Sequence record: PZ154897.1
DNA length: 64,000 nucleotides
From: a phage
Strand: one strand, 5' to 3'
The notes beneath the pieces were generated by a model, which was given only the letters and a program-made list of their open reading frames with translations, searched no databases and had not been told where the DNA came from. This document shows, one piece after another, positions 8,238-18,647 of this stretch. The translations under genes and the position numbers were made by a program. Within the stretch, counting starts at the first letter, position 1. Every line of letters starts with the position of its first letter.

Positions 8238-9825
<1,588 letters not shown>

Positions 9826-9832
9826 AATAAAA

Positions 9833-9848
9833 TGGGCCTTGCGGCCCA
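9833..9848 (-). terminator. GC hairpin with GCAA loop followed by U-rich tract, between nrdB and denA
   Basis: minus-strand RNA GGGCC-GCAA-GGCCC then UUUUAUU. Confidence 0.45.
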
Positions 9849-9852
9849 CTCC

Positions 9853-11031
9853 TTAAAAGTATTTTTTAAAACTCATCATAACTTTATCATCAACATCATT
9901 ATCAATCTGTGCAACAAGGTAAGATGACAGTTCTACTTCTTGTGGCGCGGATTGAACATTATCAGAATTAAGATATTCACGAATCCAAGGATATGGGTGT
10001 TTAACCGGAGCATCGGTAATTGGGCATGGAAGACCACACTGTTTCATACGAGATACAGTTAAGTAATCAATAAAGCTCCACATGCTATTTGTATTTAATC
10101 CAGGAACATCACCATCTTTAAATAAATGAACTGCCCAGTCTTTTTCTTGACGGTTAACTTCCATGAAAATATCAACTGCTTCTTGTTCACACTCTTGAGC
10201 AATTTTAACCCATTCATCACCATCAGTTCCAAGCTGAAGTTGACGAATAATATATTGAGTGCCTTTAAGGTGAAGCTGCTCATCACGAGCAATGAACTTC
10301 ATAATCTTGGCATTACCTTCCATGATTTCCATGTTCTTATGGAAGTTAAATGTACACGCGAAAGATACGTAAAAACGAATAGCTTCCAGGGCGTTGATTA
10401 CATGAAGGCAAAGATAAAGAGATTTCATTAGTGCTCGTTTAGCTTCGGCTTCTTGTTTAATAGCTCGATTTAAACGAAAATCAGCATCAGGAGATTCTTT
10501 GGCTAGTTCTACAAATTCTTTAGCATTTTCCCATTCACGGGTCTTCTTAAGAACATCATCGTAATAGCGACCAATGGACTCAGCGCGTTTCATAATATCT
10601 TCATCTAATACAATCTCATCAAATACCTTTGACGGATCAGTATAAAGATTTCGCATGATATGGGTATATGAACGACTATGAATAGTTTCACTAAAAGTCC
10701 ATGTAGCAACCCATGTATCAAGACTTGGGTCTGAAATTAACGACATAAGTACAGCAGACGGTGCACGACCCTGAATGCTATCTAGAAGTGATTGATACTT
10801 CAGGTTATTAGTAAAAATATCTTGCTGATATTGAGGAAGCTTGTTAAATTGTGCAGCATCCATCATCAAGTTTACTTCTTCAGGACGCCAGAAAAATGAC
10901 AATTGCTTTTCGGTTAAATCTTCAAAAACTTTATGGCGTTGAATATCATAACGCGCAATACCAAGACCTGAACCGAAGAACATAGGTTCTTTTAAAACAT
11001 CAACTGGATTTGTATTAAAAACTGTAGACAT
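9853..11031 (-). CDS. nrdB: ribonucleotide reductase small subunit NrdB, uninterrupted (392 aa from ATG 11031)
   Basis: begins MSTVFNTNPVDVL; contiguous full-length ORF, no intron. Confidence 0.95.
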   Translation of the reverse strand: MSTVFNTNPVDVLKEPMFFGSGLGIARYDIQRHKVFEDLTEKQLSFFWRPEEVNLMMDAAQFNKLPQYQQDIFTNNLKYQSLLDSIQGRAPSAVLMSLISDPSLDTWVATWTFSETIHSRSYTHIMRNLYTDPSKVFDEIVLDEDIMKRAESIGRYYDDVLKKTREWENAKEFVELAKESPDADFRLNRAIKQEAEAKRALMKSLYLCLHVINALEAIRFYVSFACTFNFHKNMEIMEGNAKIMKFIARDEQLHLKGTQYIIRQLQLGTDGDEWVKIAQECEQEAVDIFMEVNRQEKDWAVHLFKDGDVPGLNTNSMWSFIDYLTVSRMKQCGLPCPITDAPVKHPYPWIREYLNSDNVQSAPQEVELSSYLVAQIDNDVDDKVMMSFKKYF

Positions 11032-11762
11032 TAATTTTTCCTCTTTAAAATTCTGCCGTGTTTCCAACCTGGCGGAATAATATCATCTTTACCTATAAGC
11101 GTGCATTCACTTCCATTATTAATCCATTTCTTACCGCGGATTCCTTTATAATCTCTTGGTTTTATTTTGTCAAACTTTGCATCAAGTTGATATGACCATC
11201 TAAATCCATAAGCATATTGAAATTTACCCTCGGCACAATATTTGATATTTGATCCGTTTCCATTAACTGACCGGGACGCTGCCGCAATAGAGTGAAAGGT
11301 TTCTATGAAATCCCCGTCTAATGAGAATTTATGTATTTCTATAGATGGGCATGCATATCTATTCACGTTTGATACATGCTGTTTAGTTTCGTTTTTATGG
11401 TGCTTGCCTAACATTCCTTTAGGATGAGGATTATTTTTCCAATATTTCTTAAAGAACTCAGAATTAGCTTTAGCAAATAATTTTCTGTGTAAGCTGTACA
11501 ATCTGTTATTAATTCTATTGCCAGCTTTATCTGTTGCCATTAACGTTAACGCAGAGGCAAGCCCAAAATGGCCTTCATTTATCTTACATAGTAGTAGATG
11601 AGCTATAAAATGTTCTCTGGCTGTTAATTCAACTAAATTTTCCTTATCATCAGAACCTCCCATACATCTAGGGATTATATGATGTGTCTCTTTATATTCT
11701 GATAAAGATTCCCGAGCCTGAGCTCGGGAAATTAGGTCGTTATAGATTTTTTGATAATTCAT
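11031..11762 (-). CDS. mobE: HNH homing endonuclease, MobE-like (243 aa)
   Basis: HNH motif HHIIPRCMGGSDDKENLVELTAREHFIAH; located between nrdA and nrdB as T4 mobE; stop/start overlap with both neighbours. Confidence 0.8.
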   Translation of the reverse strand: MNYQKIYNDLISRAQARESLSEYKETHHIIPRCMGGSDDKENLVELTAREHFIAHLLLCKINEGHFGLASALTLMATDKAGNRINNRLYSLHRKLFAKANSEFFKKYWKNNPHPKGMLGKHHKNETKQHVSNVNRYACPSIEIHKFSLDGDFIETFHSIAAASRSVNGNGSNIKYCAEGKFQYAYGFRWSYQLDAKFDKIKPRDYKGIRGKKWINNGSECTLIGKDDIIPPGWKHGRILKRKN

Positions 11763-14026
11763 TACAATTTACACGCTGCGCAATCATCGGCTTTTGGAGT
11801 TTCTATTTCGTAATCATCAGTACCGGAACCATCACGAGTATTATGATAATAGAAGTTTTTAATGCCATAATACCATCCGTATAGCATGTCATCAATCATT
11901 ATTGACATTGGAACCTTTCCTTTTGGAAAAATCTGCGGGTCATAATATGTATTTGCTGAAGCTGATTGACATACCCATTTAAGCATAATAGCTACCTGCG
12001 TAAGATAAGGTTTATTACCTTTCTTAGCTAATTTCCATGTATAATCATATAGGTCTATGTTATGTTCAATATTGGGCACGACTTGATTAAAGGAACCCTC
12101 TTTTGATTCTTTAACAGAGACTGGTCCACGTGGAGGCTCGATACCGTTTGTACTGTTAGAAACTTGGGAAGATGACTCACATGGCATAAGTGCTGATAAT
12201 GTGCTATTACGGATGCCAAAGAGCTTAAGGTCTTCCCGCAGCGCCGACCAGTCACAAACGTATTTTGGAGCTGCGATTTGGTCAATCTTTTTATTGTACC
12301 AGTCGATAGGTAATTCGCCTCGAGACCAACGAGTGTCTGAATAATATTCGCAAGGTCCTTTTTCTTTGGCGAGCTTAATGGATGCTTTAATGAGTCCATA
12401 CTGTAATCTCTCAAATAGTTCATGTGTTAAATCGTTAGCATCTTCATAAGAAGCAAAGTTACTTGCCAGCCAAGCTGCATAGTTGGTAACACCTACACCA
12501 AGATTTCGACGCTTTTTAGCTTTTTCTGCTTCAGGAACTGGATATCCTTGGTAATCCAAAAGATTATCAAGAGCACGAACTTGAACTTCTGCTAATTCAT
12601 TAATTTTATCTTGGTCTTGCCAATCGAAGTTATCCAACACAAATGCAGATAACGTACACAATCCAATTTCGGCATCAGGACTATTCACATCATTTGTTGG
12701 AATAGCAATTTCACAGCACAAATTACTCTGACGAATAGGTGCCTTTTCACGAATAAATGGAGTATAGTTATTCGTATTATCAATGAACTGTACATAAATC
12801 CTTGCTGTTCCTGATCGTTCAGTCATGAGTAGTTCAAACAGTTCACGTGCTTTAATACGCTTTTTACGAATATTAGGGTCTTTTTCTGCGGCTTCATATA
12901 ATTCACGGAAACGGTCTTGGTCTTTAAAATAAGAATAATAAAGCTCGCCACCCATTTCATGCGGACTGAACAAAGTAATGTAGTCGTTCTTTCCAAAACG
13001 TTCCATCATCAAATCATTCAGCTGGACGCCATAATCCATATGACGGATACGGTTTTCTTCTACACCTTTGTTATTTTTCAAAACGAGAAGATTTTCAACT
13101 TCCAAATGCCAAATAGGATAATAAGCAGTAGCAGCGCCGCCACGAATTCCACCCTGTGAGCATGATTTAACAGCAGTCTGAAAATGTTTCCAAAAAGGAA
13201 TAACACCAGTATGGCGTACTTCACCTGTGCCAATCTTAGAACCTTCAGCACGAATCATACCAACGTTAATGCCAATTCCAGCTCGTTTAGAAATATATTC
13301 AACAATTGAAGCGGAAGCCTTATTGATAGACTTCAATGAATCTCCTGCCTCAATAACAACACATGAACTAAACTGTCGAGTCGGAGTACGGCAACCAGCC
13401 ATAATAGGAGTTGGCAATGAAATCTGTCGAGTAGATACTGCTTCATAAAAACGAATAACATGTTTTAATCTATCAACAGGTTCATCTTGATGCAATGCCA
13501 TTCCAATAGTCATAAATGCAAACTGTGGAGTTTCATAAATTTGACCAGTGGTTTTATCTTTAACTAGATATTTTTCTTTTAATTGCATCGCCCCGGAATA
13601 AGTAAATTCCATATCCCGCTCGTGCTTAATTTTTGATTCTAAAAATGTAATTTCTTCTGCTGAATATTTTGACAATAATTCAGGGTCGTATTTACCTTCA
13701 TTTACACAGTAAGAAATATGGTCAATAAATGAACGTGGTTCATACTGCCCATAAACATGCTTACGAAGAGCAAACATTAAACACCGTGCAGCTACGTATT
13801 GATAATCAGGCTCTTCAACCGAAATAGAATTCGCAGCAGCCTTAATTACAATGGTTTGAATGTCATCAGTGGTCATTCCATCACGGAGATATGATTTAAT
13901 ATTTTCATATAATTCATAAGGATCTACAGATGTTCCTTCAGCTGCCCAAGATAAAACTTTAATAATTTTTTGCGGGTCAAAGCTCTGAGAAACACCACTA
14001 CTTTTGATAACATTAATTAATTGCAT
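11762..14026 (-). CDS. nrdA: ribonucleotide reductase large subunit NrdA (754 aa)
   Basis: ATP-cone N-terminus, catalytic Cys motifs; same length as T4 NrdA. Confidence 0.97.
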   Translation of the reverse strand: MQLINVIKSSGVSQSFDPQKIIKVLSWAAEGTSVDPYELYENIKSYLRDGMTTDDIQTIVIKAAANSISVEEPDYQYVAARCLMFALRKHVYGQYEPRSFIDHISYCVNEGKYDPELLSKYSAEEITFLESKIKHERDMEFTYSGAMQLKEKYLVKDKTTGQIYETPQFAFMTIGMALHQDEPVDRLKHVIRFYEAVSTRQISLPTPIMAGCRTPTRQFSSCVVIEAGDSLKSINKASASIVEYISKRAGIGINVGMIRAEGSKIGTGEVRHTGVIPFWKHFQTAVKSCSQGGIRGGAATAYYPIWHLEVENLLVLKNNKGVEENRIRHMDYGVQLNDLMMERFGKNDYITLFSPHEMGGELYYSYFKDQDRFRELYEAAEKDPNIRKKRIKARELFELLMTERSGTARIYVQFIDNTNNYTPFIREKAPIRQSNLCCEIAIPTNDVNSPDAEIGLCTLSAFVLDNFDWQDQDKINELAEVQVRALDNLLDYQGYPVPEAEKAKKRRNLGVGVTNYAAWLASNFASYEDANDLTHELFERLQYGLIKASIKLAKEKGPCEYYSDTRWSRGELPIDWYNKKIDQIAAPKYVCDWSALREDLKLFGIRNSTLSALMPCESSSQVSNSTNGIEPPRGPVSVKESKEGSFNQVVPNIEHNIDLYDYTWKLAKKGNKPYLTQVAIMLKWVCQSASANTYYDPQIFPKGKVPMSIMIDDMLYGWYYGIKNFYYHNTRDGSGTDDYEIETPKADDCAACKL

Positions 14027-14584: not shown

Positions 14585-14896
14585 TTACACCGCCATCTTT
14601 CCTTTAATTGGCGGGTGAGATTCGTAACCTTTAAGAACGAAATCTTTAGGCCTGAGTTTAAGAACATATTTTAATTGTTCTTTAGTAGAAAGATAGCGGA
14701 ATTTATAAGGTAGACCACTTATTACCAGCTCACAAAGCTCTTTAGGTTCACGACGTAAAATTTCTTTACATTGTTCTACGTGATTCATATAGATATGAGT
14801 ATTACCACCAGAAAATATCAAATCTCCTGGAATAAGATTACACATCTTAGCTACAATATGAACTAACGCAGCATATGATGCAATATTAAATGGAAG
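14585..14896 (-). CDS. td: thymidylate synthase, exon 2 (103 codons)
   Basis: LPFNIASYA...HPPIKGKMAV; in-frame continuation of exon 1 after intron removal. Confidence 0.9.
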   Translation of the reverse strand, partial: LPFNIASYAALVHIVAKMCNLIPGDLIFSGGNTHIYMNHVEQCKEILRREPKELCELVISGLPYKFRYLSTKEQLKYVLKLRPKDFVLKGYESHPPIKGKMAV

Positions 14897-15158
14897 CATT
14901 ATGTTCAGATAAGGTCGTTAATCTTATCCCGGAATTATATCCAGCTGCATGTCGCCATGCAGTTCAGACTATATCTTCAACTTGTTAAAGCAAGTTGTCT
15001 ATCGTTTCGAGTCACTTGACCCTACTCCCTAAAGGGATAGTCGTTAGGCATTTATGTAGAACCAAAGTCCTACAATTTAGCACGGGATTGTCTACTAGAG
15101 AGGTTCCCCGTTTAGATAGATTACAAGTATAAGTCACCTTATACTCAGGCCTCAATTA
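14897..15158 (-). ncRNA. group I self-splicing intron in td, 262 nt, no internal ORF
   Basis: starts UAAUUGAGGCCUGAGUAUAAGGUG after exon-1 ...CUUGGGU, ends ...AUCUGAACAUAAUG (terminal G); core matches T4 td intron as recalled, with P6 closed by a short loop instead of the I-TevI ORF. Confidence 0.85.
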
Positions 15159-15706
15159 ACCCAAGAAAACATCTACAGAACGTTGATACCACTGCAAATC
15201 CAAATAGCCATTACGCACATTAAACTGATAGAACATATGACAAGGCGGTAATGCCATATATTTAAGTTCAGCTGGATTCCACGCCGACACAATTTGACGC
15301 CTATCATTCGGCAGTTTTTTAATACGATCAATAACTTCTACAATTTGGTCTACACCGCCAAAATCACGCCACTGTTTTCCATAAATTGGACCAAGTTCAC
15401 CACTATGATATCCTAAATCTTTTGCTTGATTTTCGTAATTTTCATCCCAGACTGTTTTGCCTTGAATTAATGAATCATGCTGAATTAATCGTAAATCATT
15501 TACGTTAGTACTTCCTGACAAAAACCAAAGGAGCTCAGCAATACAAGCTTTCCAGGCGAGCTTCTTAGTCGTTACTGCAGGAAAACCTTTAGTTAAATCC
15601 CAGCGTAATTTAGTACCGAACAGAGCAATTGTTCCTGTGCCTGTTCGATCATCAGTTTCATAACCATTTTCCAGGATATCTTTAATTAAAAATTGGTATT
15701 GTTTCA

Positions 15707-15707
<1 letters not shown>
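15159..15707 (-). CDS. td: thymidylate synthase, exon 1 (183 codons from ATG 15707; ORF track used upstream TTG)
   Basis: MKQYQFLIKDILENGYETDDRTGTGT...; exon1+exon2 = 286 aa like T4 TS. Confidence 0.9.
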
Positions 15708-16736
<1,029 letters not shown>

Positions 16737-17468: not shown

Positions 17469-17696
17469 TTACTGCTCAATAAATCCTGTGTAAAATTCTA
17501 CATCTTCAGCATCCATACCGTCACAATATTCATTAACCATAAATTGTTTAAGACGATTTAAAGGACCTTCAATAACAACTGAAACATTGCAATTAGGATC
17601 ATTTAGTGCGCTTGTAATACGGAGTTCAGGATAACGATTACGAATAATTTCTTCAATATATTCAAAATCAACAACATCAATATCAATTTTAGCCAT
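17469..17696 (-). CDS. hypothetical acidic protein (75 aa) with own SD; also forms the C-terminal part of the gene 32 read-through frame
   Basis: ATG at 17696 preceded by AAGAGGAAAA. Confidence 0.5.
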
Positions 17697-18647
17697 GTTA
17701 TTTTCCTCTTTAATCATCATCAGCAGTATTGCCGATAGTTGTATAGTACCACAGTATGCTTTGGGGTCCGTGTCATCAGCACTAGATGAACTGCCAGAGC
17801 TTGAGCTCATAAAATCATCTTCAGTTTTTGTTTTGAAGTCATCAACATTGAATGCATCCAAATCATCAGCAACTTTATCAGCTTTCTTAGCGGCAGTTGC
17901 TGCGGCACCACCCATAGCAGCAGTTCCCATAACTTGACTGAACTTAGTGCTCAGTTCTTCAAACGATTTGAATTTATCTTTAGAAGTCATTTCAGAAAGG
18001 TCAACCATTTGTTCGAACAGTTCTTTCTGGAAAGATTCATCATCAATGTTTGGAATCGCAGATTGATTCAGGAATTTAGATTCGTCGTAGTTACTAAAAC
18101 CAGAAACTTGTTTAACTTTCAGTACAAAGTTAGCACCTTCCCACGGACAAGTTACATCAACAGGAGTTTCACCCATTTCAACATCAACTGCAATCATTGC
18201 ATTGATTTTATCCCAGATTTTCTTACCGAAACGATATTTAAATACTTTACCTTCATTTTCTGGAGCAGCTGGGTCTTTTACAACAAGAATGTTAGCCCAG
18301 TAAGAAGTTTTACGTTTAACAAGACCGTACTCTTTATTGTCAGTGTTATACAAATCATTTTTACTGATGTACTGACATACTGGACAAGAATCGTAATCAC
18401 CGTAGGTAGATGAGCATGTTTCGATATACCATTTACCATTTTTCTTGAAACCGTGATTTACAAGAAGTGCGAATGGTGCTTGTTCATCATTTTTAGACGG
18501 AAGAAAACGAATTACTGCTTGACCGTTACCCGCATTATCGAGTTTCAGTTTCCACTCGCCTTTATCTTCAGAAGAAAAACCACCTTTATTTCCAGCCAGT
18601 TTAGCCATTTGTGCAGCGAGTTCAGCAGTAGATTTACGTTTAAACAT
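17469..18647 (-). CDS. 32: single-stranded DNA-binding protein gp32; frame lacks a stop at the T4 position and continues to 17469 (392 aa)
   Basis: residues 1-294 match T4 gp32 through ...SSSSADDTD; the last 8 codons and stop of T4 (LDDLLNDL*) are absent and replaced by a promoter-like repeat. Confidence 0.85.

Follow-up and report, generated by a model that had tools for sequence, protein, structure and literature searches.

The stretch of DNA analysed (the window; 64,000 nucleotides of sequence record PZ154897.1) is a segment of a Tequatrovirus (T4-like) genome, and its gene order at the locus considered here is the same as in T4 (Table 1). The gap between nrdA and nrdB is occupied by an ORF of 243 codons in the orientation of its neighbours, an arrangement that is found also in T4, RB3, HY03 and T6. 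The plus-strand letters read cattac at positions 11760-11765 and cattaa at positions 11029-11034, which gives TAATG on the coding strand at both junctions, and each end of the ORF shares one base with the neighbouring gene. The initial annotation had described an HNH protein of 243 amino acids filling the nrdA-nrdB gap with overlapping stop and start codons on both sides, and this description agrees with the ORF list and with the junction letters. The nrdA/mobE junction reads UAAUGA, which is exactly the nrdA/mobE overlap of T4 (PMC2988022), and by analogy the overlap would be a translational-coupling arrangement. At the other end, the Shine-Dalgarno sequence of nrdB (GAGG, 11040-11043) sits within the last codons of mobE and is kept in all RB3-type alleles examined.

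Table 1. [quoted passage not shown]
Feature	Position	Strand	Remarks
td, then nrdA.2/nrdA.1-like ORFs		minus	first in transcription order, before nrdA
nrdA	11762-14026	minus	5' of the 243-aa ORF
mobE-linked nrdA 3' variant, left edge of the cassette	11762..11789	minus	last 28 nt of nrdA; ADDCAACKL
nrdA stop/mobE start TAATG overlap	11760..11764	minus	TAA 11764-11762, ATG 11762-11760
mobE (RB3-type allele), free-standing HNH homing endonuclease gene (putative)	11031..11762	minus	ATG start, 243 aa; ORF list
Conserved 5' segment common to T4, T6 and HY03 mobE	11592..11762	minus	gene nt 1-171, aa 1-57
Intrinsic-terminator hairpin (predicted) in the 5' end of mobE	11699..11730	minus	stem-loop 11709-11730; terminator scan
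HNH motif	about 11598-11684	minus	H27-H28...N42...H51...H55; inside the conserved 5' segment
Allele-specific 3' segment	11031..11591	minus	helical linker, NUMOD1 and C-terminal beta-hairpin tail
NUMOD1 module	about 11232-11324	minus	aa 147-177; Pfam
mobE stop/nrdB start TAATG overlap	11029..11043	minus	TAA 11033-11031, ATG 11031-11029; includes nrdB Shine-Dalgarno
nrdB	9853..11031	minus	uninterrupted, 392 aa
Position homologous to the T4 MobE nick site	10906-10910	minus	nrdB nt 122-126; comparison with T2
Empty nrdB intron insertion site	between 10356 and 10355	minus	after nt 676; alignment with RB3 and HY03
denA	9415-9849	minus	3' of nrdB
rnlA	8238-9398	minus	3' of denA

In amino acid sequence, the product of the ORF equals a protein of Shigella phage ESH35 that is annotated 'homing endonuclease' (100% identity), and it is 97% identical to MobE of RB3 (243 of 243 residues covered), as it likewise is to the proteins encoded by mobE of RB5-RB10. 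The gene therefore counts as already catalogued, and it is annotated in dozens of phage genomes, in its usual place. The RB3 gene (AIT72962.1, 'mobE, putative homing endonuclease') equals that of the window in locus, length (243 aa), TAATG overlaps and internal hairpin, and in ESH35, as in about 50 further records of Tequatrovirus, a 'homing endonuclease' of the same length stands at the locus that it occupies in the window. The difference from RB3 is that RB3 also has a 1091-nt intron in nrdB with an intact I-TevIII gene, which the window lacks; otherwise there is essentially none. Judged by its sequence, the ORF is the RB3 allele of mobE over its full length.

The protein matched PHROG 655 ('homing endonuclease') with E=7e-58 and the Pfam model NUMOD1 with 25.9 bits, exceeding the cut-off of 22.8, and its Pfam HNH match (aa 21-44, 20.3 bits) was slightly under the curated cut-off of 21.4. 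The motif ETHHIIPRCMGGSDDKENLVELTAREH lines up with canonical HNH motifs (group II intron maturase, McrA) and reads E25-T-H27-H28-I-I-P...N42-L-V...E50-H51...H55. Residues H27, H28, N42, E50, H51 and H55 are unchanged in all 26 aligned homologues, in an alignment that reaches down to 36% identity; the HNH catalytic residues, the possible loss of which had been raised as a weak point of the initial annotation, are thus intact, and the protein has the motif by which it can be assigned to the HNH (beta-beta-alpha-Me) nuclease superfamily. A sequence search of the PDB gave no significant match, the best being to the HNH motif of a group II intron maturase (E=0.2). The AlphaFold2 model built from the 26-homologue alignment is confident (mean pLDDT 86.5): a beta-beta-alpha region at the N-terminus is followed by a long helical linker and then by a small alpha/beta module, and the chain ends in a beta-hairpin. 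Its best fold match in the PDB, a weak one, was to I-HmuI (1u3e; Foldseek probability 0.97, E=3.8e-3, TM 0.23-0.30). The C-terminal tail reads KWINNG...PPGWKHGR, and the 3' segment of the gene with its NUMOD1 module is presumed to encode the DNA-binding region. Kinship with I-TevIII, the intron endonuclease of RB3, was considered and rejected, the match between the two being marginal (23 bits) and limited to the HNH motif.

Comparison with the mobE genes of T4, T6 and HY03 divides the ORF into two parts of different affinity. When aligned with T4 DNA, the window is about 97% identical over a stretch that starts at the end of nrdA and takes in the first ~165-170 nt of the ORF, and the first ~57 codons match T4 mobE with 97-99% nucleotide identity; beyond about nt 171, identity to T4 mobE is abruptly 30-40%, until the start codon of nrdB. 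At the protein level, homology to T4 MobE stops at about aa 57-60 (69% over aa 1-101, with nothing beyond). The T4-type allele in its intact form is a single ORF of 213 aa in HY03 and T6, with two NUMOD3 modules and a C-terminal zinc finger, and in the T4 reference sequence it is represented by two ORFs, mobE with 141 aa and nrdB.1 with 83 aa. Pfam and pairwise comparison found no homology to the NUMOD3/zinc-finger region of T4/T6 MobE in the window protein, which has NUMOD1 and a different tail. What the window gene has in common with mobE of T4, T6 and HY03 is the insertion site, the UAAUGA coupling to nrdA, the near-identical first ~170 nt and the linked variant of the nrdA 3' end. The label 'MobE-like' given in the initial annotation thus fits the canonical site and aa 1 to ~60, which are homologous to T4 MobE, but not the remainder, which is unrelated; likewise, the alignment with T4 MobE that had been proposed there, when carried out, finds all catalytic residues kept but no full-length orthologue of T4 MobE.

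Over the first 142 nt of the conserved part, the window has one mismatch (141 identical positions) to HY03, a phage with the other allele, versus eight to RB3, whose allele is that of the window. Since this stretch is nearer to HY03 than to RB3, the 5' catalytic segment is swapped between alleles by recombination, and mobE at this site is a modular mosaic. Among the accessible papers, none was found to name mobE together with NUMOD1. The allele dimorphism can be seen in public annotations; a description of it was not found in the searchable literature, and Sandegren et al. (2005), who reportedly screened T-even phages for mobE, may already report it.

An nrdB promoter is present within the 3' end of mobE in T4. 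For the 3' end of mobE in the window, a sigma-70 scan gave six matches versus 4.5 in shuffled sequence, which is no excess. An element noticed by eye, GCTT...TATTAT, resembles a MotA-type middle promoter; it is conserved in near-identical alleles and not in relatives from Gaprivervirus or from Morganella phages. The predicted terminator within the 5' end of the gene is a hairpin with a 9-bp stem, a 4-nt loop and a weak U tract (TTCCCGAGCTCAGGCTCGGGAA then TCTTTATCAG), of which the stem-loop letters are TTCCCGAGC-TCAG-GCTCGGGAA and the RNA fold has z = -3.9. Its stem sequence is identical to that in T4 mobE, where the hairpin is a weak intrinsic terminator that ends about 30-50% of transcripts (Wilson & Edgell 2009, PMC2790892).

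Downstream, the NrdB protein aligns end to end and without gaps with that of the intronless phage T2, at 93% identity. The nrdB introns of RB3 (1091 nt) and HY03 (1096 nt) were both placed after nt 676 of nrdB by alignment, and at the corresponding position of the window there is no intron remnant, the sequence running straight through. Scanning the whole 64-kb window with all Rfam models gave no match to RF00028 (group I intron) in nrdB, and the only Rfam hit of the window is a group I intron in td (14945-15168). The statement that nrdB is one uninterrupted ORF was therefore correct, and the unnoticed split that might have lain behind it is absent.

The distribution of mobE and of the nrdB intron was compared by means of a 1.5-kb probe that extends from the allele-specific part of mobE across the intron site of nrdB. 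The probe found 55 records with the RB3-type allele, 43 of them colinear with the window and hence intronless and 12 with an insertion of ~1090 bp, the intron; counted by distinct phage, 35 of the 44 carriers of RB3-type mobE are intronless and 9 have the intron. The nrdA/nrdB junction is empty and T2-like in 377 records, of the RB3 type in about 55-58 and of the T6/HY03 type in 36, and about 30 additional T4-like records match the 3' half only of the T6/HY03 allele. The T6/HY03 allele is accompanied by the intron in HY03, SHFML-26 and GBLB0003 and stands without it in T6 and six others (GRNsp7, Killian, HMD-9, JEP6, vB_Eco_CP and a48), and the intron is present beside an empty mobE site in SHFML-11 and Pu-Krd-SF7. 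Thus, all four combinations of mobE and the nrdB intron exist, the two assorting as independent elements, and mobE most commonly stands beside an nrdB that lacks the intron, which is no anomaly. The RB3-type allele occupies this locus also in Gaprivervirus RZ, a phage of another genus (76.7% nucleotide identity over the 1.5-kb mobE and nrdB probe), and a scan of IMG/VR gave only two close relatives, L006 (99%) and L007 (68%).

The two elements do occur together in T4, as the initial annotation had said; they are about 700 bp apart there, as in RB3 and HY03. The T4 intron has a defunct endonuclease of its own (I-TevIII) and owes its mobilisation in trans to gene conversion that MobE initiates (PMC2790892). 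The functional dependence is thus that of the T4 intron on MobE and not of MobE on the intron, and the view that the endonuclease is tied to the intron of nrdB, so that its persistence alone would be notable, is not supported, considering this dependence and the predominance of intronless carriers.

Selection on the gene was assessed by pairwise Nei-Gojobori comparisons. Values of dN/dS were 0.05-0.08 when the window was compared with six other alleles, 0.09-0.11 in three further allele pairs and 0.09 against the orthologue of Gaprivervirus RZ, and those for the allele-specific (C-terminal) part were similar (0.02-0.08). Such low values indicate a maintained protein under purifying selection. 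Among the full-length alleles inspected there is no frameshift except in Aplg8, where a 1-nt deletion lengthens the C-terminus.

The presence of mobE is patchy among near-identical Tequatrovirus backbones, and the cassette has sharp borders, one formed by the final 28 nt of nrdA and the other by codon 2 of nrdB; both observations lend indirect support to homing. The 3' end of nrdA encodes ADDCAACKL in mobE-carrying phages versus AEDCSSCKL in those that lack mobE, with seven fixed differences in 28 nt in a comparison of eight phages with RB3-type mobE and just three without (T2, BF15 and P8); T4 and HY03 likewise have the mobE-linked variant. The gene replaces an intergenic spacer of 51 nt, and nrdB has TCT rather than AGC as its second codon. 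Fixed differences are limited to these last 28 nt of nrdA and the replaced spacer, and a search of the first 300 nt of nrdB for fixed 'immunity' substitutions gave none, in both cases with only the three mobE-less sequences for comparison.

This pattern bears on the target of the enzyme. The nick that T4 MobE makes in T2 nrdB lies in the non-coding strand at nt 122-126, and T4-type phages have many substitutions around the nick site, for which a role in immunity has been proposed; cleavage by MobE has never been reproduced in vitro, even in the case of T4 (PMC2790892). Reports on the activity of the RB3-type allele were looked for in the accessible literature, and none was found. The nrdB gene of the window differs from that of T2 at one of 51 positions in nt 100-150 (codon 42 is AAG) and is T2-like, that is, of the sensitive kind, where T4 and HY03 phages have a cluster of substitutions (nrdB nt 39-133). 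The region of the nick site is T2-like also in RB3, SF2-1 and G28; SP1, IME537, Ptacy1496 and Aplg8, which carry the RB3-type allele too, have T4/HY03-like substitutions there. Since the nrdB of the window is T2-like at the T4 MobE nick site, the RB3-type allele may recognise a different target, a reading that is favoured also because its putative DNA-binding region is non-homologous to that of T4 MobE. The candidate site is the 3' end of nrdA with the spacer, which would be disrupted by the insertion. Alternatively, it is possible that the RB3-type enzyme tolerates cutting of its own genome, or that it makes no cut.

With its T2-like nick site, the phage of the window would be expected to be sensitive to the MobE of T4/T6-type phages. 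A tentative extension, somewhat doubtful at present, is that competing mobE alleles meet at the nrdA/nrdB site, with a common, recombining HNH cassette joined to non-homologous DNA-binding cassettes that would direct them to different targets, and that in a co-infection the window phage may be cut by T4/T6-type MobE and its allele overwritten. If true, this would be a natural competition of endonuclease versus endonuclease through the swapping of modules at a single locus.

The best explanation of the locus, to which we assign a probability of roughly 85%, is that the ORF is a functional mobE gene of the RB3 type, a selfish mobile HNH homing cassette at the nrdA-nrdB site of T4-like phages. 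For this allele, nuclease activity, target site and homing are inferred by analogy with T4. By the same analogy, mobE would have no promoter of its own and would be transcribed with nrdA from the nrdA promoters, the transcript level would be lowered by the terminator hairpin at codons 11-18, and translation would be low and would proceed by coupling at the UAAUGA overlap. Upon mixed infection with a phage that has an empty junction, the N-terminal HNH module would nick or cut the nrd region of the recipient, with the C-terminal NUMOD1-containing module presumably positioning the nuclease on the recipient DNA, and recombinational repair would copy mobE and its flanks into the recipient. The cassette also provides the ribosome-binding site of nrdB, and its presence is independent of the group I intron of that gene.

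Three other explanations were weighed against the homing cassette. Were the endonuclease a companion of the nrdB intron that was left behind after intron loss, its persistence would need explanation, and both the short distance between the two elements in T4, RB3 and HY03 and the role of T4 MobE in driving inheritance of the intron (PMC2790892) would fit; but with dependence running from intron to MobE and not the reverse, most carriers of the RB3-type allele intronless, seven phages of the T6/HY03 type in the same state, two phages with the intron and an empty mobE site, and a clean intron site in the window, this explanation is scarcely tenable. It is also highly improbable that the ORF is a domesticated or decaying remnant that has lost its nuclease and is kept for signals serving nrdB (ribosome-binding site, terminator, possible promoter). 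The Shine-Dalgarno sequence of nrdB inside the final codons of mobE and the split allele of the T4 reference sequence are what such a remnant might leave, but dN/dS of about 0.05-0.10 over all 243 codons argues against decay, pointing to selection on the protein beyond that on DNA signals, and the catalytic residues are invariant and the reading frames preserved, save for the lengthened C-terminus in Aplg8.

Less easily separated from homing is the proposal that the endonuclease is kept mainly for the benefit of the phage, whether through exclusion of co-infecting phages, competition between alleles, or amplification or variation of nearby genes driven by recombination. In its favour, the gene is under strong purifying selection, the one site is shared by at least two or three alleles that differ in their DNA-binding modules, the 5' segment has been exchanged between alleles (as in nt 1-142 of the window gene), and the T-even homing endonuclease SegB is reported, in a 2026 paper (PMC13096335), to aid immune evasion. 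The locus, however, is one of housekeeping nucleotide metabolism and not of defence or anti-defence genes, and the proposal overlaps the homing model without being exclusive of it; as the main reason for the maintenance of mobE, phage benefit is considered improbable.

With the gene itself already known, the residual value of the locus lies in the natural modular evolution of HNH homing endonucleases that it displays, one catalytic segment being combined with alternative DNA-binding segments at a single site, and this modularity bears on change of specificity in homing endonucleases, on competition among them and on the design of chimeric nickases. The target of T4 MobE (nrdB nt 122-126) should accordingly not be extrapolated to everything that is annotated as mobE. 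Among T4 proteins the best architectural match to the window protein is MobB, a free-standing HNH endonuclease that is encoded between a-gt and a-gt.2 and has an HNH region, a helical linker and NUMOD1-like module(s). The two proteins are 40% identical over aa 1-191 (E=5e-41, pairwise), making MobB nearer overall than T4 MobE, and one database relative of the window protein is named 'MobB-like'; MobB differs in being at another locus, in having two NUMOD1-like repeats and in lacking the C-terminal KWINNG...GWxxGR tail. I-HmuI, an HNH nicking homing endonuclease of Bacillus phage SPO1 (PDB 1u3e), has the same extended modular design, with the HNH nuclease at the N-terminus and the DNA-binding modules after it, although sequence identity to the window protein is 13% and global superposition is weak (TM 0.23-0.30), and I-HmuI is encoded by an intron whereas mobE of the window is free-standing.

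In the reference genome of T4, the annotation divides the mobE allele between a mobE ORF of 141 aa and a second ORF, nrdB.1, of 83 aa, whereas the homologous sequence of T6 and HY03 is a single ORF of 213 aa. The central part of the T4 allele has diverged from that of T6 and HY03, the megablast match being confined to the 3' half. Given this two-ORF annotation and diverged centre, the experimentally studied T4 mobE is itself a variant or split form.

The RB3-type mobE, the allele present in the window, is also carried by phages IME537 and Aplg8. In Escherichia phage IME537, another annotated 'putative homing endonuclease' adjoins an nrdA annotated as truncated, which suggests that nrdA is split by a second endonuclease insertion. 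In phage Aplg8, a deletion of one nucleotide just before the mobE stop codon (GAGGAAAATTTATG vs GAGGAAAAATTAATG) makes MobE 5 aa longer and its overlap with nrdB 17 nt; this phage combines the RB3-type mobE with the HY03-like nrdB 5' haplotype (T4/HY03-type substitutions in the first part of nrdB).

Features of the window and of the comparison loci of T4 (L001), IME537 (L073) and Aplg8 (L074)
Feature	Sequence	Coordinates	Strand	Basis or remark
td (thymidylate synthase) group I intron	window	14945-15168	-	Rfam RF00028, 76 bits
td exon ORFs	window	15156-15719 and 14585-14899	-	split gene; region 14900-15170
68-aa ORF between frd and td	window	15707-15913	-	ORF
gene 32 (ssDNA-binding protein), 392 aa	window	17469-18647	-	ORF
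mobE allele region	L001	5717-6417 (NC_000866 139716-140416)		T4 reference annotation
nrdA region upstream of RB3-type mobE	L073	2854-3892		nrdA annotated truncated, 990 nt
mobE (RB3-type)	L074	2116-2862		1-nt deletion directly before stop

The gp32 of T4 has 301 aa and ends in ...ADDTDLDDLLNDL. In gene 32 of the window, the usual acidic C-terminal end is absent past ...SSSADDTD, and the frame continues into the next small ORF. Since the annotation of phage phiC600P9 has the same fused ORF of 1179 nt, and other close relatives have approximately 106 nt more at the fusion point, this looks like a natural deletion and fusion rather than an error.

The td exon ORFs of the window are separated by only approximately 260 nt, and the td intron therefore lacks an I-TevI ORF. 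Thus, the window has an ORF-less intron in td and none in nrdB. The td intron of T4, in contrast, is 1016 nt long and contains the I-TevI ORF. T4 also has no gene at the frd/td position where the window has its 68-aa ORF, whereas T2 and T6 have 'td.1' there.
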